A stretch of 52,778 nt of DNA, filler included, from Sphacelaria rigidula (lineage: Eukaryota): the NCBI GenBank assembly GCA_964200075.2. It is 4 parts of 4 records of this genome, joined end to end, with 100 filler letters (N's around TTAATTAATTAA, not from the genome) between each part and the next. Parts side by side here need not be neighbours in the genome. Positions count along the whole stretch, not along the records: positions 13,222 to 26,341 come from CAXNAA020003137.1; 3 more parts are not named here. One strand, 5' to 3'. Of this stretch, positions 2,278 through 39,660 are shown piece after piece. Numbering within the stretch: the first letter of the stretch is position 1; every line of letters starts with the position of its first letter. The notes beneath the pieces were generated by a model. It searched no databases. It saw only the letters and a program-made list of their open reading frames with translations, and was not told the DNA's origin. The position numbers and the translations under genes are program-made.

Positions 2278-4802
2278 TCATACACGATTTTGATCTTTGC
2301 TCGTTTTCATAGTACAATGTTTTCCCCATTTTTCAGGATCGCCGGTTACGTAACAAGAGGGAGCAGACACACCCAATTCTATCTTCACGTTGGCGTCCTC
2401 CCCTCTGGGCATCACTCCATCCGCGGTAGCCACATCGAATATCGATCCCACCGACGGCGCCCTACGTGAGCGCTTTGAGTTTCGCCTCCCACTGGTGGTG
2501 TTGCTACGAGAGCTCTTGTCTCTGGTGCTGCTGGAGATGTCATTTCCTATGCTGCCGCAATCGCTGGACCGCGCACCAACGAGGTCAAAGCTTGTTTCCG
2601 TCCATCCAGCAGTACAAGCAGGCGGACACATCATCTCCGTTTCCACCTTCATACAAGTCTTTCCCCCGTTAACAAAACTCTGATCTGCCACCGCTGCGCT
2701 GGCGAGCTGTCCCGAGATAGCAAGCGACGTGGTCTCAGAACTCGCACCACCTGCCCGAGCACGACGGGCACGCGAGCTCCTGTGAGAACCAACGTTGCCA
2801 CTACCATCGCTTGTGCCGGGACCGGTACCCGATGGATATTCAGGTTTTCGACAACGATCATCGATGCTGCCACTATTTCCCCCGGCCGAGTCGTCGTCCA
2901 GGCGGTCCCCTTCTTGGATATGCTCTGCTGCATCATATGCCATCACCAGGTCATGTGCAGCATGTTGGCAGCAGAAATTCCCGTGCCCCTGTACTCGGTT
3001 GGAACAGCGCTGGAAGGCGCATTTCTCGCTTCCCATAGAGATCATCTCTGCCCGGGCGCGCGCGGTACAGGAACCCATCTTCCAGCTACCGGCTGCACCG
3101 AAACATGGGTGTGTGGAGCAGCCCTCCGCGCCGCAGCGGGTGCTTCTCATGTTGACCATACTTTCACAGGTGTGAGTGGTGCAGAATTTCGCCTCCTTGC
3201 TACTGGCTGCGCCGAAGGATACTTGTTTGGAGCATCCCTCCTCGCCGGACACCTTGCTTCTTACATTGACCATACCCCCACTTGGGTGAGTGGCGCAGAA
3301 ATCCGTCTTCCTGTCACCGACTACACCGAGCGACGGCCTTGTGGAACAGCCCTCCTCCCCGCATACCTTGCTTCTCACACTGACTATACCTACTCGGGTG
3401 TGAGTGGCGCAGAATTTTGCCTTCCTGCTTCCGATTGCACCGAGACATAGATGCTTGGAGCAGCCTTCCTCGCCGCACATCTCGATTTTCACATTGACCA
3501 TGCTGGCACGTGCGTGTGTGGCGCAGAACTCCGTCTCCCTACTACCGGCTACACCGAACGACGACGTTTTGGAGCAACCCTCCTCGCTGCACACCTTCTC
3601 TCTCACATGGACAACACCCGCTCGGGCGTGAGTGGTGCAGAACTCCGCTTCCCTGCTACCGGCTACACCGAATGACGACCTTGTGGAGCAACCCTCCTCG
3701 CCGCACACCCCGCTCCTCACATTGAGCATGCCTGTTGGGGCGTGTGTGCTGCAGAACTCCGCCCTCCTGCTACTGGCCGCACTGAGCGATGAGCGTCTAG
3801 AACAACCCTCCTCGCTGCACACCTCGCTTCTCACATTGACCATGCCGGCACGTGCGTGCGTGGCGCAGAACTCCGTCTCCCCGCTACCAGCTGCACCGAA
3901 CGATGATTTTCTAAAGCAGCCATCCTCGCCGCATAGCTTGTCTCTCACATTGACCATGCCGGCACGTGCGTGTGTGGCGCAGAACTCCGCCTTCCTATTC
4001 TCAACTGCACCGAACGATGCTTCTGTGGAGCAGCCCTCCTCGCTGCACACGTTGCTCCACACATTGACCATACCCGTTCGGGCGTGAGTGGCGCAGAACT
4101 CCGCCTTCCTGCTACCGGCCACACCTAGCGATGCTTGTATGGAACAGCCCTCCTCGTCGCATAACTTGTTTCTCACATTTACCATGCCCGTTGGGGCGTG
4201 TGTGCTGCAGAACTCCGCCTTCCTGCTGCCGGCTACACCGAACGATGGGCGTCTAGAACAGCCCTCCTCGCTGCACACCTCGCTTCTCACATTGACCATG
4301 CCGGCACGTGCGTGCGTGGCGCAGAACTCCCCCTTCTTGCCACCGGCCACACCGAACGCCACTTTTTTGGAGCAGCCACCCTCGCCGCATAGCTTGCCCT
4401 TCACGTTGACCATGCCGGCACGTGCGTGTGTGGCGCAGAACTCCGCCTTCCTACTCCCACCTGCACCGAACGATGCTTCTGTGGAGCAGCCCTCCTCGCT
4501 GCACACGTTGCTCCGCACATTGACCATACCGGCACGGGCGTGCGTGGCGCAGCACTCCGCCTTCCCACTACCGGCCACACCGAACGATGCTTGTAGGGAA
4601 CAGCCCTCCTCGTCGCATACCTTGTTTCTCACATTTACCAAGCCCCTTGGGGCGTGTGTGCCGCAGAACTCCGCCTTCCTGCCACCGGCTACGCCGAACG
4701 ATGGGTGTTTGAAACAGCCCTTCTCTCTGCACACGTTGCTCCTCCAATTCATCATGCCGGCACGCGCGTGCGTGGCGCAGAACTTTGTCTCCCTGCTACC
4801 AG
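2278..4802 (-). CDS. EsV-1-7 (Cys/His-rich zinc-finger-like) repeat protein; large exon with 15 tandem 38-aa repeats and a disordered tail; 5' exon(s) not resolved
   Basis: ORF 2278..4755 (825 aa) carries the repeated motif CxExGCSxxxSFGxAGxRKAEFCATHARAGMVNV at a 114-bp period, followed by a short CxxxxC..FCxxH finger. The frame continues upstream of the Met as a half repeat (AGSRETKFCATHARAG) that begins at a pyrimidine-rich ...gatgcAG acceptor (exon start 4802), with an in-frame stop about 40 nt further upstream. Confidence 0.9.
3022..4731 (-). repeat. Coding tandem array, 15 x 114 bp (EsV-1-7 units)
   Basis: Recurring plus-strand strings such as gcagaactccgccttcct, cagccctcctcg and cacattgaccat at 114-bp spacing. 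Confidence 0.95.
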
Positions 4803-6474
4803 CTGCATCAATGACCGAGTAGGAGAAATCGGGACAATGAAGCTATGAGTTAATCTCTTACCAGAAACGATTACTTTGCCACTGCTGCCGGAATGTACAG
4901 AGCAGCGCTCGTATCTACAACGACACAATGGCGGCGATATGCATTGATGGTAGAAGGTTACTGCTCTGAGAGAAAGCGGCACTAAGCATATCTCCCGAGA
5001 TCCTAACGCCTTTCCTTGTACCCGTCTAGCGCAACGCTATCGCTTTCAAGATGCTCCTCTAGCGCGCAGGGGCATTTGCAATGGTCTAAGGCGGCTGTAC
5101 TGTTTAAATGTGCCATACTAGCGTCGCAAGGGTATCGAGGTGAAGTTGGGGAGGTGTACTCGATCATTGTTGTACGGTTGGACACGACACTCTTATTTTT
5201 CCCCTGATGTCACGAAGTCTTGGTACTTCAAGTGTAGTTGGATACAGGGCAGTTCGACTGCAGTAAAACGCTTTCTTTGAGGCGTTTGCTTCACTCCTCA
5301 CCTTGGCATCGTTTCGCTTTTCTTGCTTCGATTGGTCTCTAGCCATGGCTGACCGTCACGGGCACGTGCTACGCGTCCGCTAGATTTGCTAGTTGGAACA
5401 TCGAAATTTACTATCGCACGCACTTCCTTCGCAAGCTTGCGTGCAATAAACAAACGCTGGCTGGTACCTTTTCCCTGCTTCGCTGGCCTGCTTGCTTTGC
5501 CATGGTTCGGGTTTGGCACGACTATCTTTTGGATTACCCTGCTTTTTGCAATCCTCAACGCTAACTCCCTTGTGCCACCCGCCCTCTTTTCCGCTACCAC
5601 GCAGCAAAAATAAGAAGGATAGCCTCATTCATGTCGACAGTTTGGACTGCACCGTCCGATCAGTCAAGAAGACCAAGGCCGGCGAGTTCCCCCGTTGCAA
5701 GGGCACCACGCTCCCGAGTGTCAATATCGAGTTTATCATATCAGGCGCCTTTGGATCTTCATCCGGAATTTGCTTGATTTAGGGTCAAATCGATCCCCGG
5801 TATGCGGGAGGCACCTTTGCGGAACGCACCGTACGCAACGCGCCTTTGCTTAACGATGCGCCTGGGCCCCGATAACAACAAACACGACGCTTACTTAGTC
5901 TGCGTATCCATATATCCCTGGCTCTGCTCTAGGGTTCACGGTCTGCCTTCTTGGAGGTTAGGGATAGGGATAGAGTTAGCGTTAGGGTGTGGTTGGATTA
6001 CCCCGTATGAAGACCCAAGAGGCGGCTGAGATGACAAAAAACTCTATATGTTGTATGTGCACTTGCACATATATGTCTCATGTGTACATCCTGTATCACA
6101 CGCCGTCCGTATTGGCATCGGCTATGTCCGCTAGCAATCATCTCCCACACACCGTTTCGGTCGTTAGTAGGCAACGGTTACTCAAGGTTAAAGTGCATAA
6201 GAAAACGAGAAAATAGTACCGACGCAACACTGTTCACCCACTTATGTTGCGCAGCACGTGAATGATGACGTTGCAGAGGGAGATTCGCCTGAATATACCA
6301 AGATTGAAATCTCATCGACAACAATTTTGAGTCGAAAGATTTCGATGAAATCACTTGAACTGTAGGAAGGCCTGAAGCTCAGCGACAAAGACTAAAATGT
6401 TTTTTTTTTAATTTAGTAGTCAGCATCATGAGTTTTCAGAATTCGTAGTTGTTGTACTATTCTTCATTAGTACT

Positions 6475-13121: not shown

Positions 13122-13221
13122 NNNNNNNNNNNNNNNNNNNNNNNNNNNNNNNNNNNNNNNNNNNNTTAATTAATTAANNNNNNNNNNNNNNNNNNNNNNN
13201 NNNNNNNNNNNNNNNNNNNNN
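13122..13221. other. Artificial 100-nt contig spacer (N44-TTAATTAATTAA-N44)
   Basis: N run with a central six-frame stop linker. Confidence 0.99.
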
Positions 13222-14269
13222 GCTGTTTGCTGCTATGTGTTCGACACTGCGTGCCAACCGCGTCTTTACGCCTTCGGTGGTACTACCTGCTCACTGCACA
13301 GCGGCAGCGTGCAGGGTGACAAAGGACATCACAGAACGCCACATCCTCAGTCTATCCCTGTCCTGCATTAATTTCGCGCTGTCCTATGCCGTTCGCCACA
13401 TCATGCGCTCAACCGCTTGTGTTGCGGTCAACGTGCACGCGGGATATCATTTCGTAACGCTCTTTTTCGTGTTGTAGCTACAGCGTGCGTTTGCCCCTGG
13501 TTGCGCACGCAGGAGTTGAAAGCCACCTCTGCTGCTCTCATGGTTACCTGTATCTTGGGCGAAGCTGTATGGTAGCACAGCCGCTATGGCGCGAAAGCCG
13601 CCTGTAGCATTCGATACCCTGGAGATTTTTGCGCACTGCTGTTGTCTCGAAGTGTAGCATTGCAGTTACCGACTTGAGGTACCAGGACTACACAAATTAT
13701 AGTCGGTAATATATTATATACTGTGTGCAGTACACTTCTGACACAGTGCTCGTACCGACTGTAGAATCTTCGTCCAGGGTCTGGGACATGTCAACATGAT
13801 GCAGGAATCTGATACATTTTGACATATAATCTGGCGCGGTGAGATGGTGGAAATCTCCACTACATCTGGGCGAACTGCAGGTGAGGCAATCGCCAAAATA
13901 TTCACCTGTGAACTCTGCAATAGTGCACTGTAAGTTGATATTGGTAGAAGGACATCACCATAACGTATACTTGTAACCTCGACCTTGTTTGGTTTTGAAA
14001 AACGTCGATCCTGAGGTGTTTCGAACTACGATGCGGACCTAAAAAGGCCGTGTTTCAACGAAACAGCGGGAATGATGAACATTTCGTGATGGTGGTGGTG
14101 AAGTGACAGTTCACAACTTTAATATCACGAGAAATCACACGCCGTTCTAATCGAGTATGCTAGGGTGGGAAACAAGTGATACAGAAACCAGGGGAATACA
14201 GCACGCGAACAGACCAGCGACTTGAAGGAGGGCAGTAGTCACGCGCAAGGGGGTATGGGTATTATTGTC

Positions 14270-15510
14270 GCAGGTCGAAACGCGGCCCGCGTTCCGCACG
14301 AGAGGGAGAAGAAGCAACAGCAGCAGTGTCAGCAGCATCTTTACTGCCAGTAGATGTGCGCGGCTGAGGGTGGGTTAAATCAACCGGTGCCGATACTGTT
14401 GCTGCTGCTGCTGCTGCTGCAGTTTTTCCTCATGGGAGAAACGAACCGCGTTTCGATCGTGCTACAACGCACACGCACCTTGCGCACGGGACCGCCTTTG
14501 ATCCAATACTGGACGGGTTTCCGTCAAACAAAGGCTGTCTTGTGTGGATGATGAGCTAGCGCTTGAACAATGCGCGTGAGTTATGGGTGTCTATGCGTCG
14601 CAGAAATCCAGTGCATCACAGAAATCCAATGCCGAATCTGGAATAGCCTGAGACAACAACCAATAAAAAAATTGGAATGACCGATGCTGCGTCGTCTTGT
14701 TTCATCTGAGCCCACGCAGAAGATTTGAACGTCACGACTTACGCAGAAATGGGGGGAAGGACTGTTACATGGGACATCAAGGCAGACAGCTCCTGTCATC
14801 AAACGTTTGGGATAGAGCAACTCCGTGCTGGCTCAGTGTGTTCGCCCCAACGTGCACGCGTCCGCCTTGCGTGTCTTCTGCGATCCCAGGACCCGACTAT
14901 AGCTGAAGTACGGTACGGACGGAGACGCAACAGACAGCTGCGCGGTCGTCACGTGATCGTTTTATCGTTTCACCTTTGTGTACAGACAGTAGCTAGTATA
15001 CAGCACTTTGATCTCACCCGACTTCTTCTGTGCTTACCGGAACACCGCATGCAGCACTACAACTGTTCAGGCACTCTACAGCGCACATCACACCAAGTTC
15101 GTCGTAGAGTCTTCAAATGCACAACAGCACAGCGACAACTACAGCATAGAAATGATTGGTATGGAAACGCCTTGTTCTTTTGACTCCATGTTGTAAAAAA
15201 CAATTGTTGTTCGTAGTAGTAGTACAGCAGTAGCGGTTGGACACGACTGATTTTGCACCAAGAAAAGCTGATGCATACTGTATACAGTCCGTCTTCAGGT
15301 TCTAAAACTGAAGAACACAGCAGAACAGCCGTGTCTTGTGTTCAGTGTAAACCTCTGTGCTCCAGATAATGGGGTCACGTTTTGGGCAGTACTTGAAAAG
15401 TTGTGCTTGTTTTTCAAGTTCTCGAAAAGTTTTGATCGTTTTTCCGTCACAGAAAATCAATGCCGAATCTCGAATAGCCCGAGACAAAAACCAGTTTGAA
15501 ATTTGAAGTG
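14270..15510 (+). repeat. Copy 2 of the ~1.2-kb interspersed element (see 10800-12015)
   Basis: Same ordered motif blocks. The tcacagaaatccaatgccgaatct module is present twice (~14617 and ~15447) and also at ~1165. Confidence 0.75.
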
Positions 15511-17711
15511 CTGCGTTCAACGAACCGTCCTGTTTTGCGTAGTAGAAAGTCTCCGTGTTAGATGGCCAAAAAGTGCCGGCGTACACTTGTCTTCGTTTGC
15601 CGTTAGCTCCGTAGATGATGTGGCTCTTCTACCGATCCACAGGACCATGAAATTCAATATTGCAAGGGTCGGACAAATGATGATTCGTCTGGAAATTACT
15701 TGGTCTTAGTATAATGAGTCGACTCGTGACGAAGAAATCCCTAGGCATTATTACAGCGTTGCAACCCAGGTACACGCAGCCCCGACACGTGGAATGGCAC
15801 AAAAGTTGCGCGGATACCCTTGGACTAGCGATCAACTTATTTCCCCCTTTCGGGCAACCAGGCCGAAAAAATTGTGGATTTGGTTATTTTGAGTCGTGAC
15901 GATTCGTCCCAACCGTGTACGATTGTGCATGAGGTGGGACTGGAATTTACGGGTGTACGTTATGGTTCATGTGTTGAATACCCCCAGCAGCATTCCCCGT
16001 GTTTCCTTCGGTCGGTAGTACGCGTATGCTGTAATACGAAGTACTTTCGATGAGCGACAAAATTCTTCCCCGGATACCTCAGAGTACTCGGTGCCACACT
16101 ATGGGAATCCACGGTACCCTGCCCTAGACCCGTCAATCGGGAACTCGTGAATTCATGCGGTCCATCACCATGCGAACGTTCTTCCTGCCCACCAACAATG
16201 CACGGACAGTCATTTTTATATTCAAGAACCAGAGCTGAAACCAAGATTCATATGTTGCGTCTGGCCGTCAATACCTCCGGTGCCCAAAATGATCGAGAGT
16301 TCACCTCCTGCAACTGTACGCTACATTCCCGTTCATTTTACTGTACATCACAAAACATACCACGCAAGACATGTATTTTGTTCCTCTCGAAGCACACGTC
16401 AGATAAGATACAACAAGCGCCATTAATCAGATGAATAAAATGTGTAAAAAGACAACGGGGAACAAATAAATGGATGGATAGTATGGATGATCTTGGAATA
16501 GGATCCACGTCACGAGGCATCGCCCTACTACGGGAGCTACTGTACCGCCGACCCAACACAACTGTGCAAATATCATCTACAACTTCGGTATATCCTCATC
16601 AGCGTGTACGTTTCGAGTACGCCTTGGAGATCCTACGGAACAAAATAAACATGACACACGCCCCTTCCCCACCCCCCCAGCCCGCGCAGCCAACAACTTC
16701 CGTTGTAGTCGAAATATCCATCATGACAAGTGTTCACCTTTCCCCGTTTTTCTCGTGGCGTAGCCAACGAACTGATAAAAAGTAGGGGGCTCTCGGCGTG
16801 TAGCACGCACAGCAACAACCGTTCATCTGCAACAAGTTTACATTTACCATACACTTGGTTCTTCCACTGTTGGTTTACATTGCAGACAACATGCCCTGGA
16901 CAAGCCAAATACGAATGTGGCGATGGTGCTACAGAGAAATAACTGCAGACTGCCGACGATGATGCCTGTTAGGGCGCATGGCTCACGACTTCCTCGCTCA
17001 TGCCCTCCCTAGACAAAATGTACTGAACAGAATAACGCTGCCGTGTGGTATAAGGTCAAGCAGATAATATTCTTCCGCTCAGAAACTATTTTAGCCAAAA
17101 TACAAGCCGCACTTCCTTCTCATGTTACCGTCGCTCAACATTTTCCTCCACACCGAAGTGTTATTTACGGTGGGAACCAAACCAGTGCACCTACCCAATC
17201 AATCGTTCATTCTCCCACGTTCCTCAGGTCATCAAAATTTATTCTACAACATATCAAAAACTTACTCTACGGCACATCGAAGCATTTTTAGCGCCCCCGT
17301 CCATCCTTTTTTTCCAACTCCCCGCCCAGCTGTCCCCCAATAATGCCCGACACATCTCCAGTATGTGGCAAACAAGTACGGAAGAGGGGAAGGTCCAGAT
17401 ACCGACAGGGACCACGCCCGACACAATCCTCCACATTCCGCAATATTGCAGGTGACAAGACGTCATGATCCAACAGTAACCACCTCCCTCTCGCTCTTCG
17501 ACTCCATTGCTGCGCTGGGTGTGGTCCCACCTATGTGTTACTGTATACGCTCCCATTAAACAAAAAAACGACTGTGACACTTCCTCGCCACTCCTCCCTC
17601 CGTGCGTCCAATTCCCTCCCCCCTTACCATCCCACTCGTCGCAGGCAATCGATCAGAAACAACAAAACCATCATCATGGTATAAATATATGAATATATAT
17701 ATATATGTATT

Positions 17712-20700
17712 TTACGCTGCAGTGCCGGTGTTGTCGGAGGTGGGCGGTGTTGTCGCATCAGCTCCTTCTACTGCTGCGGCTTGCTTACCACGGCTGTATT
17801 CAGCCTTCATGGTAGAAAAGTGCATCAATTTGCCCTGAAGTCTGCCACCGTCGACAATCTCGAGAGCCTCGTAAACAACGTCGCCAGTTACCACCGCGCT
17901 TTTCCCGATCATGAGGGTTTTTGACGCCACCACGGTGGCCTTCATGGTACCCCCGATGCGTCCGTCCGCGCATTCTACCTCGCCCTCCATTTGTCCCCCT
18001 GCATAATCGAACATCGTTGATACATTGTTTGGTTTTGATTGTTTGTCGTACACCAGCTGATTCACAAGGGATCCAACCGTGGGCACAAGACAAGCCAAAG
18101 GTACACGCAACACTCACTCAAGGAAAAATTGTGACAGAGAGGAGACGAAGGAAAATGCGAAACAGACTGAACGACAAGGGGAGACGAACAAAACAGAAAA
18201 CAACCACCAGCCAAGACAAGTACACGAAAAAAGGGAACAGCATCGAACGCAGCATGTCTCAAATTATGGAAGACGACACCTTTAACCCTTCGATAGCGCA
18301 TCGGAACAGCTCCACAGGCGATATTCCGGAGACATGCGGGGGTTTCCAGTGGCCGGGTGTGTGGATTGTTAGGGGGGGGGGGGGGTTCCGTTCGCATAGG
18401 AGCCGAAAAGCTCACCAAGTCAACCATGTGTGTTCGGAAGTTTCCCGCGGAAAACTAGTAGCGGTGCACCAAGCCCGAGAGGCGCGGGATGCCCATTTTG
18501 ACATATCAAGGTCGTGAAAATGAGCACGTTCTTCCGGTTCGGGTGGACTACATCGGACTGATTCACTGTCTACCCCCACGACTCATTTTGGTCATGGAAA
18601 ATCAACCATAGATTAAATGGGTACACATGACTTGTATTCTGCTCGTGGTCTACGCCGCCGGCCTGACCCCTCATGTGCTGCCAGCATAGCTTCACTCTAC
18701 AGTGTTTTGAGCACTATAATAGGCAGAGGCGTCAGCAGCGTGCAGTAACCTGTGTTATAAGTGGAGAGCGATGGCACACTTATACTTTCTCTTGCCGCTG
18801 TATCCAGTGAAGACATGCAGCGCACATACAAACCGATCCTGCACGCAATTGACTGCAGGGTCAAAACTGGCCAGGGGTTCTCCGGGACTACCTTCTATAT
18901 ACGAAGTAGATGACAAATGTCTACCTGTTCATGAAGAGGGCGTTTTGTATAGCGAGAGACCACAAGTGTTGAACCCCAAATATGGCATAGTTCCTCTCAG
19001 TCCACCTGCGGCGGGGTCGCTGTCTAAGGGTTCAAGGCTCACTTACGCCCGGCTCGCGCAGTATATCGAGTGAACTTCAGAGGGTCATGATGTCAGCCAT
19101 GTATTCACGCCTTGAACTATTTTTCACATGTGTAATCTTCGTAGCCAGCGGTTTGTTCATGTAGTCATTCATGTATTTTGCATGTATACATCAAATGGTG
19201 CAGAACCGTTCACACATTACATGCTGAAGATGGATCATAACTGATGTAATGGTATGCTGAAAAAACATATGTTGATTTCGCATCACATGACACTACATAA
19301 CTGGAGATGAAGTATGCCTGCTTATACTAATTCGTCACGATAAAAAACGAATGTTTCGTGGACAAGGATGGGCGTGCAGTCATCAATGACATGATATCTA
19401 GTCCTGTGGCGTTGCAGACCATGTCCCACACATCACAAACACTGCTCTCAGCGTGCACCGAACGGGAAGTCTTCCTGTCCGGTACATATAAAATACACTG
19501 TGCAGCAAAGGAAATTTCTCTTTTGGTCCACGAACAGATATCAACACATTTCTAGATGAGAAAATGAGTCACAGCATTGACCAACGCCGATGGACGTACG
19601 TGGACGTACAAAATGGATCCACAGTACGAGTACCTCCGACGTGTCAAACGTCATTAGTTTCATTCACGGTGTTCCGAGATTCACAACTCATGACAGGAAA
19701 TATCTTGATGCACGTGGACAGGGGAGAGAACAAGCCTTGTGGAACACCACCTCATTGAGCTCAGAGGAGCGGTATTCTCGATGAGGATCCACCATGACTT
19801 TCACCTTCTCCTCTACGAGACTATGATTGAAACCCTGATTCGCTTCTCTGCTCTTGGACGTACCCCCAATCCGCATAAGGGATTCACACTGGAATTTGCG
19901 GACACGTCCATGCACCAAAGGCACTTTCTCGTGTTTCCCCCGTCTTCTCGTCACCCCTCACCCGCAACATTCATTCCCCATATTCCAACACAGGAGCAGG
20001 TCGGCTTATTTCGCAACTGTAATGTCATCGGTACACATCAGCGGTGGTGCTTCTTGCGCGTGCGGGTTGGTCATCACCGGCACCGCTGGCCGCTGTTCAG
20101 GGTATGTGTTTGTTCAAAAGCAGTTAGTTCAACATGTCACCCGCACTGGGTTACGTCATCATGACAAGGTGAGCGATGGCAACGCAGTTTTGGTCCTCAT
20201 ATTTCCCCCTCTGCGCTCTGCGGACGTACGCGCATCCATGTGGGGTGTGTGGAGGTTTTGGTTGGGGCTGCCGTTTGGGCTCGCGTCGGGCGCGCATCAC
20301 ATATTACACGAACGAGAGCGGCAGGTTTGAACGACGCCGTTGAGCGAATTTAAATTTTGATCAAAAAACAACGACCACGTCGGAGAAACGAGTGACGACA
20401 AACTCGAGTGTAACAAGAGGCCTTGCGCCCAGGATCGAATACGGTAAACCACGGACGACGGACGAAACGTGTCCACACACACTTGGAACACACAGCGCGG
20501 AGATCACGAATCATTCTCCAACAAAGGCATATCTCAACACACGCACGCGCGCACGCACGTATGAACACACGAACACACACTACACGCATTTTCCTTCTCC
20601 TTTTTTCCCCTTTACCTTCTGCCAGGACGAAGATACCCGTAGTGATCGTACCCTTGAACAACCCCTCCACGATGACCTTGTCGCACGACGTCACCGTAGC

Positions 20701-21454
20701 CTCCAGAGTGACCCCCTTTCCGACAACCAACACCCGAGGCTCATGGGTCGCCTCGAGGGTAGAAGTGGGTCGAGCGGCAGGCATTGCGTCAGCGTACCTG
20801 CCCTTCGTGCTGTAAGTACTTCTCCCCTCAGCGAGGTCGTAAAGCTCCCGATCGTACGACGGGGGTGGACTGGCGTCGCTGGTCACGCTGTTGTCGCAAG
20901 ACTCGGTGTCGAATTTCCTCAACCCTGACCTGCTACCGCTGTCGCGTGTTCCTGGTGGAGCGTGCAATAGACCGTTGTAGGATATTTTCCGTTCCCTGCC
21001 CCCGCTGCTAACCGTGTTACCGGTGTTGACCGAGCTGCTTCCCACCGGTTTGCTGGGGGTGTTGGACCTCGAGGTGTGGTTACTGCTGTTGGTGGCGATG
21101 GTGTGTGCGCAAGAGCACAGTTGTGGGGGTAGGAATTCGTGGGAAAGGAAGGGAAGTAGACCGAGTTCACAAGTTTTCTGATGGGGATGAGGGTATGCCG
21201 GTTGAGGTTCACATGCAGGGGAGGGCGAAGTACACATCCCACGGTCAGATTATCTCAACCAATGCGCGGTGCTTGACAACTCACGTGGTGAACACATGCA
21301 TACACTGCTTATGCGAGATGTGTTGTAGGTACGACGCTACTGCAGTGGAGTGAGTGCGGTTGTGCCGGCGTGAACAACCTCCTTCATTCCCCGCCTCACC
21401 ACCCCAAGGGTCCACGCTCTGCTCGAGATATTCGACGTTTGACTGATTCTCCAT
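17712..21454 (-). CDS. Bactofilin-family (PF04519-like, polymer-forming beta-helix) protein, spliced; predicted 308 aa
   Basis: Exons (-): 21454-21285 (caaccATGG start, AC|GTGAGT donor; tentative), 21085-20616 (caacAG acceptor, GAAG|GTAAAG donor) and 17998-17712 (tatgcAG acceptor, TAA stop). The total is 927 nt and phases match. Joined domain: RVLVVGKGVTLEATVTSCDKVIVEGLFKGTITTGIFVLAEG-GQMEGEVECADGRIGGTMKATVVASKTLMIGKSAVVTGDVVYEALEIVDGGRLQGKLMH, the alternating hydrophobic/Gly pattern of the bactofilin beta-helix. Confidence 0.88.
18330..19000 (+). repeat. Interspersed repeat within the bactofilin intron; other copies at ~24600-25510 and ~25915-26180
   Basis: Shared gttcgcat..agccg.aaagctca.caag.c..catgtgtgtt.ggaagttt.c..cggaaaa, ctgctc.tggtct..gccgcc.gcctgac and ttgactgc.gg.tcaaaac..gcca.gggttctccgggac. 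Confidence 0.75.
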
Positions 21455-21859
21455 GGTTGAAAAATATTCATGTGTAACTTCCGCGCAATAGCAACACGAA
21501 CCACCATGTACAACTAATCAGACGTTCGGATGGTCTTCGCACCACATTCCTCACCAGTGGAGGTCCTGACTCTGAGTGACAAGTTCAAGACGTGCACCTT
21601 TCCTTCAAGACTTGTGAAATTTCAAAAATTCCTGCCCGCTCTGCGCGACATCGTGTCTTGGCTGTCACTGTCGAAATCCCACGACTTGGGTGTCGAAAAA
21701 AGTATTGTTGTCTCTGCTTCGCGTTCAGCAACGCCGACACCACACTTTATTTACTACCACCGAGCCCGCAGCCAGTAATGATTTTGGTGACAAGCCGTCC
21801 TCCATGCACCGCCAGCGGGCCTTCCGGGGGGGAGGGACCTACGCATGCAAGCATTTCCA

Positions 21860-23570
21860 GGATTCACGGTGCCTGGGAAGTGAAACTACCTTTCGCTGCT
21901 TTTTCCGTAGCGGCATATCTTGCCGGCGTTGTGGTTTCGGTCGGCCGCTCACCGGCCAACGCTTGCAGTAACACAGAAACAACCACAAGTCAGGGTTCAT
22001 AACATGTTCGAGGTAAATACCCTCGGGTTCTACTTGCCGCCTGGCAACAGACGGCCGTACAGCCGTGCCGGACACAACAGTGTCTTCTGCCAAGGACCAT
22101 CATGAAGCTGTTCAGGAATAAGGGGGCAACATCCCCTCATAGTAGTACCAGACTTCGCGAGTCGGAGACCACGACAGGCTGACGATGACGACGACGAGGG
22201 TGGCGGTTGCTGTTGTCTTTACTTCATTCAGAATCACCCTGCAATTCTTGTAAAGGACACTCCCACGTGAAGATCTTCAGCTTTTCCCCGACAGCTGCGT
22301 GATCGCCCTTATACGGAGCTTTCACCATTTGATTTGATTTCCAACTAGGACAGAATGCAAGTTGCAACTTCCACGGATGGATCGCGGATATTCTAGCCTT
22401 GCCGAGGCGTGGTTCACATCGTACCGTCAGTACAATATTCGTTCCACTGCCGGCTTCAAGCACACAGTGTCAACTTAGATATTTCTGAGCCGCGACAGAA
22501 TTCGTGTGAACAAACGTCCCCTCCCTCCGCAGTGATATGCATCTCTTGTCCTTCGGACGAGTCAGCCTGTAAGGTTGTCTAAAGAGCCACCTTGCGGTAC
22601 TGATGTAGACCCGCATCTTCCAAGGATGCCTGCTCCTTGACTGTCAGAATATTTCATGCCTTGGAGCATGACAATCTCCAATGAACCTCGCGGATTGAAT
22701 CATGAATTCAGTAAAATGCCTTCATGTGATGGAATAAGGAATGACATTGTAGGGCCTCCCGTCTTGTCAAGACAAAAAATAAGAATGGACATGGTGAGAA
22801 TGATCATGATGATGACAAACAGCCCACATGTGGCAACCATTTCACGTTCCCTGTCGCTGCATCTTCATCACCAAAATGTATCCTCAAGCGTGTCTTACCA
22901 AATCTTCTTCGATCGAAAACGTACGGCGAAAAATAAATAGTTCGTATCTGGTGCGTTCACGTCAGTTATTCCTAAGATGTGTAACAACATGCCGTGGACG
23001 AATCAGATAGGAACAACTTCTTTTCCGCCGCACATTTTCACACTCTGGATAATGAAATAACAACAGCCATATTCTGGAACCAAGTGAAAGCTCTGCACAA
23101 GGGCGATTACGCGCCTGCCAGAGAAAGGTACATATCTTCACGTGGGAGCATACCACCGAAGAATATCCGGTTGAGTTTGGTAGGAGAAACTACGGCAACT
23201 GCCCCCGTCATGTTCAGACCGTCGTGGTAACCGCCACGCCAAGTCTGGCACTGTGAGAGGGGAGACGTTGCCACCTGCCCGGACAGGTCCGCAGTGGTCC
23301 TCAACAGAAGACACTCCTCTCTTTAGCTGCGTTGTGCGGCAGCGTCTTGCTCGGCACGACGTATAAAACTCAAGGGCATCTGCCTCTCACACATGAGAAC
23401 CTCAACTGGTGGTTCTTTCCCACCTTGGTACCAGCCTCGACCAACACGGGGCCGATGTGAACAAAAGGATGACAAGATCTATTCCTGCCTCCGCGCGGAT
23501 TTCATATCGTTACCCTCTATAGTTGTCATTGAAAAGTATTCTTGTTTTCGGAATCACCGTAGCATCGTGC
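21860..23570. repeat. Degenerate long inverted repeat (fold-back) with an insertion in the left arm
   Basis: The reverse complement of ~21860-22330 aligns with ~23082-23570 (e.g. gtgaaagct....aagggcgat.acgc, atcttcacgtgggag, tggtcct..cagaagacact). Inner arms are 22915-22962 and 22995-23040. Confidence 0.75.
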
Positions 23571-24800
23571 TTAATCATCCTTTCAACCACCCACTTGCGG
23601 GTCGCCGAAACTGCTGCGTCGACACCTACCTGCGGCTCCAGTTCACACATACGTCGACTGTCAGTATCATCAAACGCCAGGTGTCTTGTGTTGGGGCGCC
23701 CAATCTCCAAACATACTGCCTCCATATTATTGAAAAGGGGTATATCGATAAATATTGCCGGCCATAATAAACGGAGAAACATGTCGCTCGACAACCATTA
23801 CCGACGACCATATTATAGGGTTGGGGACTGGACCGGTATCTACTGATAGTATTCCTGTACTAGCAGTTTTCCTGTACTGCGTCAGAGGCTGCTAGTACAG
23901 CCAGTACATACCCATCTTTCGTACGTCCTATATTATGCCTCCTGAACCACATAAAAACCCAACAAAACTACGCCGCATAAGAGGCAGGAGAGGAGAGAGG
24001 TTGAGAACAGGGCACCCACACACTAGAGGGAGACCACAAAATTGATGGACCAATGTCACTAGCAGCAGCAGCCCCCCCGCTTCAGACCCGAGTCCAGGGC
24101 CTCAGATCCCTTAACCCGCCGCGGCCTCCAGCGAATCACGATTGTTGAAGTTTTTCTTTGGATATACGAAAAACTATTTCGAAAAAAGAAAAATCCACAT
24201 CCGGGCAGACATGATCGAAGTTGCCCAAAATCACCCAAAAAATATCTTTTAGTGAAGCAAAATCGCGTAAAAACACGCCTCCGGCGGGGCCCCCTCACCA
24301 GCCTAGGGGGGGGGAAAGCGGAGGTCGGGGCTTTGCCGCGACATCAATGTACTGATGGGACCAAGTAAACTGGCTGCTCTTCGCAGCCAGTTCACCTGGT
24401 ACTGGCGCGTAGCGCCAGTCCCCAACCTCACCATATTGTCATTCACTTACTGCAGCAGATTCTTCTGCTGTTGCCAAAAATAAACGCATCTTGTCCACGG
24501 TGTGCACGTTTTCGATCCAAGAAAATTCCGAAGAGAGACGCCTTAGAAAGCGAACGTGGCTTTGGAACAGTTTCACTGGCTCACAGTCCAGGGACAGGCG
24601 GGGGTTTCCTGGTTGTGAGGCCGTGGTTTTCGACAGCGGGGTAGGGGTTTGTTCGCATAACAGCCGGAAAGCTCATCAAGCCATTCATGTGTGTTTGGAA
24701 GTTTTCCACGGAAAATTACAAGCCCGGAACGAGACCCGAGAAGACCGTCGTGACGATTTTGACCAGTCACGACCATCAAAATGGTCGATTTGTTCTGCTA

Positions 24801-25236
24801 GACCACCTTGTATGGCAACCAATCCGTATCTGTACAAATATGAGGATTCCAGCCCGTTTGAATCCGATTTTCTCCCGTGGATTGATTTTTCGGAACCCGG
24901 TCCGTTGGACAATGTTTTTCGAATAGCTCTGAGGAAACCAGATCAATCCTGCGATTCTCTGGGCGCTGACTTTTGTTTTCATCACCTTTCTGCTCAGATC
25001 GGGACTCTCCCGCATCTCCCCCGATGTGGGCCCCAGATTCGGGGGAGATGCGGGAGTCTCCCGATCTCAGCAGCGCCCAGAGAATCGCAGAATTGATCTG
25101 GTTTCCTCAGAGCTATGCGAAAAACATTGTCCGACAGACGGGTCCGAAAATTCCATCCACGAGAGAAGATCGGATTCAAACGGGCTGGAATCCTTATATT
25201 TGTAAATATAAGGATTGGTTGTTATACAAGGTGGTC
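24801..25236. mobile_element. Palindromic MITE (436 bp), possibly PIF/Harbinger (Tourist)-type
   Basis: Ends gaccaccttgtat...atacaaggtggtc, with arms complementary over almost the whole length. Flanked by cta / tta, an imperfect 3-bp TWA-like TSD. Confidence 0.85.
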
Positions 25237-25554
25237 TTACAGATGGATACAGATAGACTGTTTAATATATACATCGCTCTTCAGAGGTCATCCTCCCTTT
25301 GGTCTTGGCAATTCAACCAGAGATGACATGGGCACAAACAACATGTCTTCTACTCTGCTCCTGGTCTCTGCCGCCTGCCTGACAGCTTTTGTATTGCCAG
25401 ATTGACTGCGGGATCAAAACCAGCCACGGGTTCTCCGGGACGAGTTTCCGTATAGATGCCCAACGTCCACACGTTCACGGGAAAAGGCGTTTTGTGCAGG
25501 GAAGAAACAGCTGATCTTGACTTCTTTGACCGCGAGGGTAGTTAATCTTGATCA

Positions 25555-25700
25555 TGCATACGAGCTGAGCCAGCCTAGACACGGATTTAAGCTCTCAAGG
25601 CAATATCTCGTCGACACGGACGAGTTGGGCCATGATCCGCATACTGCATGAAACGTCCAACCAAGGGGAAGGTGCCCATCTGCTCAAGATTTTGGGCTCA
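25555..25700 (+). repeat. Dispersed repeat segment, homologous to ~35530-35672
   Basis: acgagctg.gc.agcct.ga.acggattta.gctctcaa.gcaata..tc.tcgaca.ggac...ttgggcc.tgatccgcata...gtgcccatct.ctcaa is present in both places. Confidence 0.75.
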
Positions 25701-26341
25701 TATTCTCTCGATGATTAACCTTTAGATGACGAGCGTCGCCTTGGAACAGTTGTACAGGCTGACAGTCCGGAGAAAGCCGGGGGGTTCCAGGGCTCGGGGG
25801 GGGGGGGGGGGGGGAGATTAAGGGGGGGGGGGGGGGCGGCCGGAGGGCGGGGGGGGAGGTCAGGNNNNNNNNNNCAGATTGGCGGCGAGCGCAGAGGGGG
25901 ACGAGAGGCGGAGGCCGGCACTCTTCAGGGGTGAGGGGTGTCTGCACGCAGAGCACCGGAGAAGCTCACGGAGTCAACCATGTGTGTTCGGGAGTTTCCC
26001 GCGGAAAATTATGAGCCGTGCACGAGGCTCGAGAGACGCGGGATGATCATTCTAACCAATCACGGTTGTCAAAATGAGCACTATTGTTACGGAAGAGGCA
26101 AACACATGGTGGACACATTCGCTTAGCCTCATAACCCATTTTGATCATTCCCAATCAACCATAAATTATGTAACCGACACGCAGGTGTTTGAGCATCTTC
26201 GGTACACTGTTCTGTCCGTCTGTTCAGTACTGCATTGGCGTTGTACTAGCTCCACACCTCCATCTGGTATCAAACGTCATGGCGCAACACGCGAGCGGCG
26301 GCCACGAGTACCCGACGCACGTAGATGTAGACAAGTACTTG

Positions 26342-26441
26342 NNNNNNNNNNNNNNNNNNNNNNNNNNNNNNNNNNNNNNNNNNNNTTAATTAATTAANNN
26401 NNNNNNNNNNNNNNNNNNNNNNNNNNNNNNNNNNNNNNNNN
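26342..26441. other. Artificial 100-nt contig spacer
   Basis: N run with a TTAATTAATTAA linker. Confidence 0.99.
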
Positions 26442-30400: not shown

Positions 30401-33400
30401 TTTCAATTTATGTTTTCACGTTTGTGGAGATGTCCGCAACCGGACAAAGGTACTGTACTTTCGGGAATCAAGGGCATGTAATCCACCCAGACTGGTGAGG
30501 ACACGTCAATTTGACCGACGGGACGCGACCGGATGGGGTATTCTAACGACACGAGCGCGTGACCCATATTCGCTCTTCAGGAAAAATACGTTCAAGCCAG
30601 ACGCGTGACCTCCCCTTCCCCCTTGTCGTTTTTTGCAGATTGGAACTCCAGTTATGCGACAGGTGGTGTTTGGGGATCTTGGCACGAACGCCGATGTTAT
30701 CAGTCCAGATCCTTGCGGGGGCGGCGTACCTGCAGCTGGAGCTCTGGTGCTCACGTTCCTGTTGAATAATTACCAAGATTCAAACTTCCAGCGCCTGGCG
30801 GAGCAATGGGAGAAGGAGGTAGGGGGGTTTTCTTGTTTGGCGGTTTAGTCTCATTTACCTGTTTTTGTGGCAGATGCTGTTATTTTCGCTGGCCGCTGTT
30901 GTTTGCTGTGTTTGCTGTTGCGGAGTTGTTGTTGATTCTGTAGTTGATCATTCTGATTCTTGTGTGTGTTCATGTCTGAAGGTATTGCTGTATGTGCTTG
31001 TAGTGGTAAATATCGCTTTTGTCAGGTTGGTGTGTGGGGGGGGGGGGTTCTGGCCCAAGTTTTTGGTCGGGCTACTTGTATGGTTTTGCGTTGGGCGTGG
31101 GCTTTGTAAAAGCGCGTGTACCGATTCGTTTTCAGTGTTGAAAAAAGATACCAGTGTGATCTGCAGCCATCACTTGTTGAGAGTTTACAATTTCTGACAG
31201 GGGCACGATAAGGTGTTCATATGTTGTTGTTACTTGCACTGTTAGGCCTTCTTCAAGGTGGAAAATAAATCAATATTGGGTGCACTTACGTGGCAGGTTT
31301 TTCTTGCTATCGTGGAGGAGGCGCGAGATGTACTGGGGAACGACGTGCAGGTCCCGATGAAGGTGATGATCATACCAAAGAGATTCTGGGGTTACATGCC
31401 CATGAGTTTTGCCAAATTCCCACACACATTCAACACTTTTGGCCCCCGTGTCGTGGAAATCGGGATGAAGAGATTTATCCGCGGGGTAGTTTTCGCCAGG
31501 TGGTCTCGATAACAGACTCAAACTTGTCGTTTTCTCTCCGCATGGGGTTCTTTTAGGGCTTGACTATAGTGGCTATGGCAAACAGTTTGTTGTTGAGAAG
31601 TCGGCACAACGCGGGTTTTCCTTTGCCATATCACTTCACCGCCTAGGGCATTGGATTGCTGTGGCAATCTAGTCTACATATAAAGGTCAAAGTGTTGAAA
31701 CATAAGGTGTAGTATTCTCACGCTTGACTTTTTTATTGTTCCCTGGCATTTTGGACTCCTCCCTTACGTGGTGACTTGGCAGTCAGTCTGAGGGAATCAA
31801 CTTCATCTCTTCCCCAGGTACATGACCGTCACTTTCATGATGTGAGACGGAAAACATTGAGTCAAGAACGTGTGTGTCGCGTATCCCGTGGTTTGTTATT
31901 GGGATTGCATCAAGGTCTGCTGATTTTTTAATCTACACCCCTCCCTCAAGAAGGTCTGGATCCAGCATCGGTTCGGACCCTGATGACTCAAAACCACAGG
32001 CGCAATCGAAACCTCAGAGTGGTGGGAACACGCGACCATCAATCGCCATGTTGACGGGACTCGAAATACGAGAAGTTGATCTAGATAAAACAAGCCCTCG
32101 TCACAGTACACGAACCGCAACGGTAGGACGAAGCTAGCCCCGAATGGAAGATGGAGGATAGCCTGCCCATTGTTTCCGGCGTCGGTGGCGGTGGTGGCAA
32201 TGGCAGTGCTGGTAACAATTCACACGTGCGCTCCTTGGTTTGGCTGGCCAGGTGTCATACATGGCGCAGAGATCTGTGGAGGATAGCCTCTCTGTGGAGG
32301 CCGGCGAAAACGCATGGGTTCTGATAGTGTCGTACCTCCTTATGTTCTTGTACGTGGCGCTTGTGCTCGGAAAACCCTGTCATCCCATCAGGTATGTTTC
32401 TATATGTACTCCACCCCAATTATTTTGTAAACCAGGATTGACAAAAGTCCCGGAGGTTCGGTCTGAGCCATTATAGCGCAGACGAGAGCAGGAGGAGGGT
32501 TGCGGCCACCCGCAGGGGGCTCCATGGGCAAAAAATGTAGGATTTCCACATCAAGCTACATAGAATGGGGAGTCCCCAAGTGTCTTTTGTCGCTTACCGA
32601 GGAAAAGATCCCCGCGAAACACTATTTTTATGCGGCGAGCTGCATATTGCTCTCCCCCAAAACTGCGTTGCGCGCGATTTAGGCAACAAATTTGCGCTTG
32701 CGCAGATGCGCAGACGACTTTTTCAGCCGTGGTCTACACTGAGCACGGCCCGTCTTGAGTCTCCATGTATTTCGTCCCGTAAATATACACCCTACGGAAT
32801 GCCCGCCGCGCCCCGCCGGTCTAGCTCGTACAGCAACACAATATACCAATATAGTGGAGCCAGGTGGGGCGAGAGATGGTTGTTCCGAATCCCAGCAGAG
32901 TCGATTTTTTTTAAGCGAAATCTCGTTGCTGTTGTTCAAAATGTGACGACGGGAGCATTTTTTTTTTCTTTCACGAGAGTCGAGGCGATGCGGATTGCTG
33001 ATGATGATCCAATTTACGATACCGGAATGCCAGGCAGGTATCAAGGCAGAGATGGAATGATTGATTTTCTTGAGGCCACGCCACGGACACGTCGTATCGT
33101 CAAAGTGGAGGGGTCGGAAGTATGATGAGAAGAAAAAGGAGACGAGAAACAAGGGAGTAAAGCGCATATTAGGTACTCATCCCGTCCCACATATCATGTT
33201 TCCATGCCGTCATGCCATCCCTTCCGCCAGATGGGTGCTTGTTGTTCACATGCAGGTGACGAATACCAGCCATACCTTGTGTTGACCTTCTCCACCGACC
33301 GCGTTGCTTGAAATATGTTGTGGATTGAACAGTCAACCAAATGAACCCTCGTCCGCTTGACAGTTGTTTTTGCGTACGCATGGCCTGTATCGACGTTTTT

Positions 33401-33527
33401 CGCGTACCAGGTCGAGGTATTCGTTGGCTTTGAGTGGCATTACCATTGTTGTGGCCAGCCTCGGCACGGCGATCGGTTTGCTGTCCGTATTCGGGGTGGG
33501 CACTACGCTGATCGTGTGGGAGGTGAG

Positions 33528-33575
<48 letters not shown>

Positions 33576-36500
33576 CGCTCACCACGATACGACTATGGCT
33601 ATATACGGCTTGACGAATGACCTTGCCAAGCATGCCGTTCCGACATGCACGTGCATCCACTTGGACAGAAGGGACAGTAACATTGTTGTTTTGCAGTGTA
33701 TCTTCCGTCGGTAGCCGTGGCCTAACTCGTCTATCATGCCAGGAATGCCTCGTCGCGGACATCTCTCGACTGTCCACTTCTTAATGGCTGCACCATAGCC
33801 ACCGCGCGTCGATGGTCAAAGTGGAACAGTACGTCATCATGTATTTTTACGTGGAGTGATGGGTTGAAATCCCGACCAGGTTGCTGTTGTTGTTGGTATC
33901 GGTTCCCACCGTGAAAAGCGTGATAATGCGACTTCACCATACGAGCTGGGCCAGCGTAAAAGCGAATTTGGAGTTTGCAGGTCAATCCGCAATTTTCTAC
34001 TTGGGTTCGGGCACTGAAAATTGTTATGGACAATCAACAGGGCATGAAAAGTATATACATATGCGTGGTCCCAAAGATTTCTTTTTATTTTTGGTGATTT
34101 ATAACGCATTATTGCCCTCAACTCATGAAAAAACAATCGTTGGGACCACGCATATATACATATATATATATATACACAAATTTTCATGCCCTGTTGATTG
34201 TCCAATTTGCCTTTTTCAAACCCGGGCCGGTGGAAATTTGGAACAATATTTTGCAGGCCGTTTACCGGCCCACGTTTGGTGTTTGTGTATTGAAACTTTG
34301 TGCGGGACCTCACTAGGTCATGATACACCAAGAATAATGAACCAGGTGGGCTTTTTCTTTTTTTACTGTTTTAAAGCGTGGTAGTATGGTAACGACCATA
34401 TTTTCACGAGAACGCCCGAACCTCCCCCCCCCCAAAATAAATAAAAATTAAGGCCCCCCTTTTTTTTATTCAGCATACCTCTGTGGTTCTCCGTGCTAAG
34501 TTTCAAATCACAATTGTAAGCTGAAAAATTGAGTCAAGGCCTGAGAGCAATGTTCATTTCTCCTCAGAACTCCCCTAAAAACAGGAAAAAACATGAAAAA
34601 CGAAAAACGAAAAAAGGTTAAGAGCTATGTTATTTTAATATGCACTAGCGGTTCTTCACACGAAATTTCATAGCACAACTCTCAACAACTGAGACGCGAT
34701 ATCCAGATTTAAGGCATCTAGTGCCTCTGCTCGTAATATATTGATTTTATTATAGAACCTCATGTGCACCATATAGCATCTCCAGATTAATTACGAATTA
34801 GGTGAAGGTGAGGGTATCTATCGTCTCCGCTCCAGGGAAGGTCCACACCGAAAATCGTCATCATCTGCTGAATGTATCGTTCGGGCTTTTGTATAGGGTT
34901 ACCGTTATTTCAAGAATGTGTCAATCATCAATGTCATGGCCCCGAACTGAGACAAACTCGCCGCATGTCGAGTGTCAAGTGCCAGTGCCAGTAGCGAATC
35001 TCACTGAATGCTTTTGGTATCATCACACCATACGCATTCAAAGTGCTCAGCCACGGTTTCAGTGACATAAAAGTGGACGGCGAGCGTGTGAGGTCGCGTA
35101 GCAGCCTACCAACCCTCTGGTTTCGTGCAATCAACCGCCTCCTCCCCCAGCGCCTATCGTAGAACCACTCCAAGCTGCGAGCCGGGCATATACAGCGAGA
35201 GCGCCGCAAGGTGTACTATCAATAAGTCAGCTTCTCGACTCTCTTTCCTGCGGAGAAGAAGTGCAAGCTCAGCGCAGTTCGTAATTGCCGTCGATTTCTG
35301 ATCCCGAAGAGTCCCAACCATGGGGATGCGGCCATCCCAACGACACGAAATCCAGCATACTGCTGGTGCACTCTGGACTTTCATACAGAGGATCCTATTT
35401 TATGTGTCGGTCAGCCATACTCTTTCTCGAGACGGGCCACCAATCTCGAAGGGTCAACGCATCTTTTCCCCAGTACATGTCTGACAACGAATTGTCGGCC
35501 ATTGGGTGAGCACGGTCGACTTCGTAGAAACTACGAGCTGGGCTAGCCTGGAAACGGATTTATGCTCTCAAAGCAATACCTCATCGACATGGACAACTTG
35601 GGCCGTGATCCGCATATCGTATTAATCGTCCAATCAAGGGAAGGGTGCCCATCTACTCAAAAGCCTAGGCCAATATTTTTGCGTTGATTAAACCCCATGT
35701 GTAGCAATGTCTATACCATACGGAGATGGTGTCTATACTAAAATGTAACCCTAACCCTATCCAAAGTGGTGTTTGAACTCCGATACCGTCCAAAAAGCAC
35801 GCGGTCCTCCAACGCATTATAGATGAAATGGCTCCGAATTGGGGCACCCTCTGCTGCTTGGCACTTGACACTTGACAGTGACATCAGTGACTCTTCCATG
35901 TAAGAGCAAGAAATAACTGGTTTGAAGACAAGAAATCCCAACGCTTTCTCCCCTTCCCTGTCGTAGGACAACTCTACGTGTTTGATTTTTATGGTGCCCT
36001 TTTCGCTGCATCACGCGTTCCTGCTGTACTGGCAGGTGGTGCCATTTTTAACTCTTGCAATCGGGGTGGACAACATGGTTATCCTGTCCAGGGAGTTCGA
36101 CAGGTGGGAGACATCCGAGGAGTTGTGAAGAGCTCAACTCGCTGATACTATTCTTTTATAAGAGTTGAGAGCTGATCCACGGAGAAAAATGCTGCCATTT
36201 TTTATCTGTGTTGCGCTTTCTTGCTTGCACACGAGTACTCCTCCCTCCCAGCTGCTCCGTCTCGAAAGGGACGCGTGGCCAATGGTCATACGACTAAGGC
36301 AAGCAACAAAAGAGTACCCCCGCCCCTTCCCCCCCCCTTCTTCCGCCTGATCCAGCGAAAACCCGGCGTGCTCCGTCATGACTTTGTAGATATGCGAGGT
36401 CAATGGTCTTATGACTATGTGACTACGGCATGCAAGATCATGAGTACACCGTTCCCCTCTCAGCCGCCATCCGCCGGTCGCATTATGTGTCGATGTTTGA

Positions 36501-39560: not shown

Positions 39561-39660
39561 NNNNNNNNNNNNNNNNNNNNNNNNNNNNNNNNNNNNNNNN
39601 NNNNTTAATTAATTAANNNNNNNNNNNNNNNNNNNNNNNNNNNNNNNNNNNNNNNNNNNN
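39561..39660. other. Artificial 100-nt contig spacer
   Basis: N run with a TTAATTAATTAA linker. Confidence 0.99.

Follow-up and report, generated by a model that had tools for sequence, protein, structure and literature searches.

Bactofilins are the one widespread family of bacterial cytoskeletal proteins that has almost no eukaryotic counterparts, so that a conserved and spliced copy in a multicellular organism is a natural place to ask which role such a protein could have in eukaryotes. The question raised by the locus described here is whether the brown alga Sphacelaria rigidula possesses such a copy in its nuclear genome, and what the gene looks like when it is assembled from its exons. 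The locus lies on the minus strand of a stretch of 52,778 nucleotides from NCBI GenBank assembly GCA_964200075.2 (this whole stretch is called the window below), in which a first-pass annotation, made from the sequence alone, had described an intron-bearing bactofilin gene in an algal nuclear genome. That description was borne out by a match to the family profile PF04519, by the splicing of the gene and by the identity of its nearest named relative, which is a protein of Ectocarpus. With a probability of about 0.85, we read the locus as a nuclear, spliced, brown-algal bactofilin gene, orthologous to the Ectocarpus gene, whose product would polymerise and which would be an old acquisition from bacteria.

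Coding exons and splicing of the gene

The window consists of four pieces of approximately 13.12 kb each, which are split by N44-TTAATTAATTAA-N44 blocks at positions 13122–13221, 26342–26441 and 39561–39660. These blocks are spaced 13,220 apart and look like linkers with stops in every frame; thus, only the piece at 13222–26341 (CAXNAA020003137.1) can safely be taken as contiguous with the bactofilin gene, and a neighbourhood across the linkers should not be assumed. Inside this piece, a gap of 10 N is found at 25865–25874, beside poly-G. Contigs from four public runs were aligned to positions 17400–21800. X1 to X6 are classed as RNA by guess only, X1 and X2 coming from one study and X5 from a second study, where it is labelled with the name of another organism; X7 is DNA-like. 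The informative runs were three, from two studies, and the contigs give no expression level, strand or transcript ends.

The last coding exon (exon 3; 17998–17712, minus strand) was identified by translation, by its match to PF04519 and by the cover of RNA-like contigs. It contains bases 2 and 3 of a divided Gly codon and encodes ~60% of the beta-helix, on the C-terminal side, and a tail of ~35 amino acids (aa); its stop codon, TAA, is at 17714–17712. The internal coding exon (exon 2; 21085–20616, minus strand; 470 nucleotides (nt)) was identified as the sole open frame, by its relatives and by contig borders. Its product is a Ser/Thr/Pro-rich extension of ~116 residues followed by the ~40 residues with which the beta-helix begins, and the last base of the exon is base 1 of the Gly codon. 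No stop occurs in the 156 codons of its coding frame, as compared with 7 and 3 stops in the two alternative frames; a frame open over the length of the exon was obtained in 12 of 5000 mononucleotide shuffles. Taken together, exons 2 and 3 encode a visible product of at least 251 residues, the frame of which is intact throughout, and which is composed of a disordered Ser/Thr/Pro-rich extension, a six-turn beta-helix of ~100 residues and a short acidic/Pro-rich tail. The translation of both exons agrees with the frames and with the intron arithmetic (17999–20615, phase 1) of the first-pass annotation.

The two exons are separated by a phase-1 GT-AG intron of 2,617 nt (17999–20615, minus strand), which splits the beta-helix and has the borders GAAG/GTAAAG at the donor and TTATGCAG/GG at the acceptor. 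The junction of 20616 with 17998 had been set as a check on the gene, and it was found joined in one contig each of X1 and X2 (joint 17997 to 20615, with 2617 bases skipped); the joint ends are CT..AC on the plus strand, which is GT..AG on the gene strand. No such joint was found among the contigs of the DNA-like X7, one of which is colinear with the window over 18996–21800. The word depth in X1 and X2 is ~820–1,830 in the exon bins and ~3–6 in the intron bins, and in X7 it is flat at ~67–73 across exons and introns alike (outside the repeat bins). Additionally, the borders of exon 2 coincide with the ends of two X5 contigs (20615 and 21084), and contigs of X1 and X2 likewise start or stop there. 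Such a pattern of depth and joints would be expected of spliced mRNA accompanied by a trace of pre-mRNA, and the DNA-like run lacks the joined form.

The intron contains one or more high-copy host repeats (18282–19163, no strand assigned), whose presence had been claimed earlier and is confirmed by the depth in X7 and by diverged copies. In X7, the bins at 18282–19163 have a depth of 6,941–34,754, compared with ~70 elsewhere, i.e. roughly 100–500 times the single-copy depth, and the five bins at 18282–19016 lie at 270–500 times that depth. Diverged copies of the repeat (71–74% identity) are located at 24564–24763, 25401–25495 and 25928–26168. Neither a Pfam nor an Rfam match was found for the intron repeat.

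Two other observations concern low-complexity and repeated sequences of the same piece. Upstream of the gene, near the copies of the intron repeat, a long element resembling a hairpin is made up of nested inverted repeats at 24794–25243. They are centred around 25030, and their arms measure 104 nt with 88% complementarity, 72 nt with 93% and 35 nt with 91%. Long poly-G tracts are present at 25776–25874, where the tract abuts the 10-N gap, and at 18352–18385, where it borders the repeat within the big intron.

The bactofilin domain and its relatives

Exon 3 alone matches PF04519 with 41.2 bits (cut-off, 27.9 bits) over profile positions 41–97 of 98. The remaining 40 positions are expected to come from the end of exon 2, a 48-aa piece of which scores 16 bits on the same profile. 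The product of exons 2 and 3 was scored on a custom hidden Markov model (HMM), not on Pfam; the model was built from alignment A2 with its 54 non-algal rows. It gave one domain of 118.5 bits at residues 112–243, spanning the junction at residue 157, and the controls gave 86.0 bits for exon 3 alone, 18.2 for exon 2 alone and 17.8 for exon 2 read into the intron. The domain match across the junction and the contig joints both agree with the earlier claim of a beta-helix that is split by a phase-1 GT-AG intron at 17999–20615. Another alignment, A1, was discarded, because its pieces misaligned the two halves of the beta-helix onto each other.

The best match of exon 3 is P0004 (165 aa), which scores 60.2 bits on PF04519 over positions 2–97 of 98 and matches Caulobacter BacA (2n3d) with an E-value of 2.7e-11. 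The AlphaFold2 model of P0004, made with alignment A2 (55 rows), has a predicted local distance difference test score (pLDDT) of 97–98 over residues 31–130, and this region is all beta. The best three PDB matches of the model in Foldseek are the bactofilins 6rib_A, 2n3d and 6ria, with target template modelling (TM) scores of 0.88, 0.74 and 0.89 and root-mean-square deviations (rmsd) of 1.6, 4.2 and 1.4 Å, respectively. From these profile and model comparisons, the core of the gene product is predicted to be a bactofilin domain that forms a compact right-handed beta-helix of six turns.

The search with exon 3 was performed against 1.84 billion representative proteins and gave 72 matches with E ≤ 0.001; no match was obtained when the homologue search with this exon was limited to longer proteins. 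P0004 is contiguous across the junction (...FVLAEGGQMEGEV...), and it is 78% identical to the exon 2 tail (P0004 residues 9–71) and 61% identical to exon 3. The nearest named relative is P0077 (217 aa, encoded on a 9.29-Mb contig), which is listed both as 'conserved unknown protein [Ectocarpus siliculosus]' and as 'Polymer-forming cytoskeletal protein'. Its identity to exon 3 is 71% (P0077 residues 137–201) and that to exon 2 is 49% over 84 aa, nearly all of which fall in the domain part. On these identities we regard the window gene as the orthologue of E. siliculosus P0077. P0079 and P0080 belong to a very close relative: P0079 shows 98% identity in 66 columns of the tree, and for P0080 the identity to exon 2 is 84% over 146 aa, with one gap of 5 residues, which is in-frame and thus indicates that the Ser/Thr/Pro-rich extension is kept in frame. 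P0009 (2,197 aa) and P0013 (2,580 aa) were rejected as bactofilins, being lectin/Ig/Rib and RHS-repeat proteins.

Relatives with identities of 45–98% break at the intron position. P0076, P0080, P0081 and P0082 are genomic open reading frames (ORFs) in which ...FVL(A/S)EG is followed by unrelated letters. The first residue of P0005, P0006, P0008 and P0010 is a Met two residues past the junction, and P0007 and P0012 have unrelated letters before the Met at this place. The simplest reading of these protein models is that relatives down to ~45% identity share a phase-1 intron at this Gly.

A quick tree was calculated from 72 rows (the window product, 11 algal-like rows and 60 others), after the exclusion of 14 proteins that were fragments, giants or long, aberrant rows. 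In this tree, 40 of the 69 inner branches are open, and the 11 algal-like rows fall in a weak (68) group together with 12 other rows; P0014 is placed elsewhere.

A further conserved position was noticed in the extension. A Met followed by Pro or Leu is found 8–18 residues before the first strand in six of the seven algal sequences that cover the region: at 20783–20785 of the window (minus strand; Met 101 of the exon 2 peptide), at M14 of P0004, at M82 of P0077 and also in P0076, P0080 and P0082, not in P0081. This Met sits about where bacterial bactofilins start, and it may be the start once used by the bacterial ancestor, or else an additional start from which a short isoform without the extension would be made.

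Proposed function and alternative readings

Bacterial bactofilins usually bind the membrane by an N-terminal peptide with the consensus MFSKKKK (PMC12448750; this paper, 10.1101/617639 and PMC12192438 are cited here for the part of their text that was available). In the mechanism that we propose, the beta-helices of the algal protein would stack end to end, head-to-head as well as tail-to-tail, into non-polar filaments that form without nucleotides, as is the case for TtBac of Thermus thermophilus and PiBac of Phytophthora infestans, and these filaments would scaffold other proteins at the membrane. The long eukaryotic N-terminal extension would replace the MFSKKKK-type peptide and would take over targeting or regulation. 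The gene would have passed from bacteria into the stramenopile lineage long ago and would then have gained introns, one position of which was kept.

Residues 1–6 of Ectocarpus P0077 are MGNAAC, not MFSKK. In this one sequence, these residues would fit the pattern of N-myristoylation, and a Cys that could be palmitoylated stands close by. A tentative and, on balance, doubtful proposal suggested by this N-terminus is that brown-algal bactofilins might be anchored to the membrane by eukaryotic N-terminal lipidation in place of the MFSKKKK peptide. Were this true, a filament taken over from bacteria would have been turned into a cortical scaffold with a lipid anchor in a multicellular eukaryote, and the scaffold might act as flagellated cells form, as is hinted by the expression of PiBac around sporulation (10.1101/617639). 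The term 'myristoyl' is absent from the available text of 10.1101/617639 and PMC12448750.

Several points speak against the interpretation of the locus as an expressed, filament-forming bactofilin of bacterial ancestry. The RNA status of X1 and X2 is a guess, and both belong to a single study, the contigs of which come without level, strand or transcript ends. The rows of alignment A2 were chosen by their likeness to exon 3, so only the gain that exon 2 brings to the custom HMM score is independent. The fold and the whole-domain Pfam match were both obtained with the orthologue P0004, at the identities of 78% (exon 2 tail) and 61% (exon 3) given above, and the Foldseek E-values of the three bactofilins (2.1e-3 to 6.7e-3; next matches, 0.5) fall short of the 0.001 mark. 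The N-terminus of the gene product, and with it any membrane-binding peptide, would lie in an exon outside the window, and neither a supported algal clade nor a donor was found in the 72-row quick tree. According to 10.1101/617639, only the Phytophthora protein was successfully expressed, and no brown-algal protein was shown to form filaments. Finally, the phmmer alignment of P0004 to 2n3d_A places the Leu of ...DGGRLQG... at the BacA F130 column, a residue that is hydrophobic and not Phe. The TtBac variant F105R is impaired in polymerisation, and its BacA counterpart is F130R (10.1101/617639; the variants are also named in PMC12448750).

The alternative that best survives, which we nevertheless consider unlikely, is that the bactofilin fold was kept and that no filaments are formed, the protein being a monomeric or capped beta-helical adaptor in which the disordered extension does the work. 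The Leu at the F130 column would fit such an adaptor, as would the extension of more than 116 residues, which is far longer than the bacterial tails, and no polymerisation of a brown-algal bactofilin has been shown so far. However, both ends of the helix are conserved among the algal relatives, the core model fits the filament subunits of TtBac with an rmsd of 1.4–1.6 Å, and the stramenopile protein PiBac does polymerise (10.1101/617639). A two-copy complex prediction for P0004 residues 28–136 gave scores of 0.00 and 0.00, with the alignment unused and the controls not folded, and does not bear on either reading.

The 5' end of the gene is the place where our model departs from the first-pass annotation. 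The 3' part of an upstream intron (21086–21800, minus strand) precedes exon 2, with its acceptor AG at 21087–21086, where the contigs of X1 and X2 have loose ends (21087). In both sets, the contigs with exon 2 continue past 21087 with the same non-window letters, 28 to the contig end in X1 and 365 in the X2 contig. For these letters, no place was found in the window at ≤2 mismatches, and no word of ≥11 letters matched it on either strand. They are open in the frame of exon 2, so that the coding sequence probably continues upstream, and since the window is made of four linked pieces, the true 5' exon or exons are missing from view: the donor, the start codon and the 5' exon(s) must be located past position 26341 or within the gap of 10 N at 25865–25874. 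Low-depth contigs at 21555–21800 resemble those of the big intron.

In the first-pass annotation, exon 1 had been placed at 21286–21454 (minus strand; ATG at 21454, GTGAGT donor at 21284–21279). This exon is plausible in silico and is not present in the transcript contigs, and we rejected it because the contigs joined to exon 2 carry other upstream letters. As to the proposed junction 21285/21085, the acceptor before 21085 is real, whereas the contigs of X1 and X2 place the donor exon elsewhere. In the same way, the Ser/Thr/Pro-rich N-terminus of ~165 aa stands for its exon 2 part (37% S+T+P over 116 residues), and its first 56 residues are unsupported, together with the 308-aa product, since the exon 2 contigs do not bear the end of exon 1. 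It is improbable that the annotated gene model is right after all, at least as an alternative isoform transcribed from ~21500 and spliced from exon 1 to 21085 to encode 308 aa. Such an isoform has in its favour the ATG at 21454, a good GTGAGT donor and fitting frames (170 + 470 + 287 nt = 309 codons), and it might occur in a life stage beyond those of the three informative runs, which come from two studies. Apart from the contigs themselves, with their other letters past 21087 (365 in X2), it is contradicted by the 56-aa peptide of exon 1, which has neither a Pfam match nor a relative, and by the N-terminus of the Ectocarpus orthologue, which is unrelated. The contig cover is blank at 21222–21515 in X1 and X2, and this blank was not counted as evidence.

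We regard it as very improbable that the gene is a decaying relic of an old transfer, still transcribed and functionless. The gene has no known function, and its N-terminal extension evolves fast, as can be seen from the 49% identity to Ectocarpus over 84 aa, which comes mostly from the domain part. Against decay, the frame is intact over 251 codons, the core is 61–78% identical among relatives, the indel of P0080 is in-frame, and the intron is kept at its position and correctly spliced.

Bacterial contamination, or a misassembled bacterial fragment, has practically no probability left and is excluded, as the first-pass annotation had held, because the intron is spliced in RNA-like contigs and has high-copy host repeats within it: although the family is overwhelmingly bacterial and 61 of the 72 matches are unnamed single-domain proteins of ~30–45% identity outside the algal set, the gene has two spliceosomal-type introns, one of them removed in those contigs, the DNA-like contig is colinear with the window over 18996–21800, and the orthologue lies on a 9.29-Mb Ectocarpus contig.

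Surrounding features and comparison with known systems

A part of the 3' untranslated region of the bactofilin gene is located at 17400–17711 (minus strand), where one X2 contig spans 17400–17997. Beyond 17400, the X2 contig with both exons has 1,647 more letters and an X1 contig has 1,646; if the contigs are colinear with the window there, the 3' untranslated region would extend to ~15754 and would be ~1.96 kb long. The sequence TGTAA is found at 15755–15751 (minus strand), where both RNA-like contigs would end if colinear; TGTAA presumably serves as a poly(A) signal in algae.

Elsewhere in the window, on a different piece, an open frame of 854 aa (2281–4842, minus strand) contains 15 EsV-1-7 cysteine-rich motifs (PF19114, 594 bits); the EsV-1-7 family is a hallmark of brown algae and their phaeoviruses. 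This frame and the Ectocarpus protein as nearest named relative both give the genome a brown-algal appearance. The third piece has an exon-like ORF at 33361–33711 (plus strand) that resembles the beginning of the sterol-sensing domain (PF12349), with 24.8 bits and E 2.3e-5, and is probably part of a multi-exon gene of the NPC1/Patched type. No second bactofilin was found by Pfam on 187 ORFs of ≥85 aa (193 were found, of which 3 with X were dropped and 3 that overlap the bactofilin exons were left out), and the Rfam search of 13222–26341 gave no match.

Eukaryotic bactofilins have already been described. In 10.1101/617639, the PF04519 matches among eukaryotes were reported to form two clusters, one in Stramenopiles and one in Ascomycetes, positive subclades were shown on a tree of the stramenopiles and horizontal transfer was proposed; this distribution and the transfer hypothesis are repeated in PMC11459167. 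The same preprint describes filaments of PiBac in vitro and its expression around sporulation, and its authors cloned Ectocarpus D7G0L1, which was one of three proteins chosen for expression and was not successfully expressed. P0077 is probably this D7G0L1. The available main text of the preprint does not mention the word 'intron'. A bactofilin was also reported in Imitevirales (PMC12192438), and we have no evidence linking giant viruses to the window gene. Among the papers listed in our literature search on bactofilins in eukaryotes, stramenopiles and algae, none was, by its listing, on the function of a brown-algal bactofilin.

The suggestion that the gene could belong to a little-studied filament system of brown algae was therefore anticipated, since stramenopile bactofilins, including that of Ectocarpus, have been in print since 2019 (10.1101/617639). 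The window gene is a further orthologue of this published kind, ordinary for the lineage and already known as a type. The question of the eukaryotic role was raised in 2019 for stramenopiles including Ectocarpus and is still unanswered. To this, the window adds evidence of splicing in one more brown alga and a conserved intron within the beta-helix. Moreover, the 5' part of the gene model is revised, with the start codon placed outside the window, which is useful for cloning and leaves the overall picture unchanged.

Compared with known systems, the window gene is closest to that of Ectocarpus P0077, with which it shares a variable N-terminal extension, one PF04519 beta-helix and a short tail, as well as ~70% identity over the helix part encoded by exon 2 and the same ...SEGGQMEGEV... 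junction. The two proteins differ in the extension, which is unrelated and has 95 residues in P0077, whose model starts with MGNAAC..., as opposed to more than 116 visible residues in the window. PiBac (PITG_07992, D0N980) is, like the window gene, encoded by a stramenopile nuclear bactofilin gene that is expressed and is thought to have been horizontally acquired from bacteria; unlike the brown-algal proteins, it is the sole stramenopile case for which polymerisation has been shown in print (10.1101/617639). The bacterial proteins TtBac (6rib/6ria) and BacA of Caulobacter crescentus (2n3d) share PF04519 with the algal protein, and the P0004 model superimposes on TtBac with an rmsd of 1.4–1.6 Å, whereas the identity in the structural alignments is ~20% and only the algal gene has spliceosomal introns. 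Finally, the short bacterial tail with its MFSKKKK-type peptide contrasts with the long Ser/Thr/Pro-rich extension of the algal proteins, in which Leu occupies the BacA F130 column.

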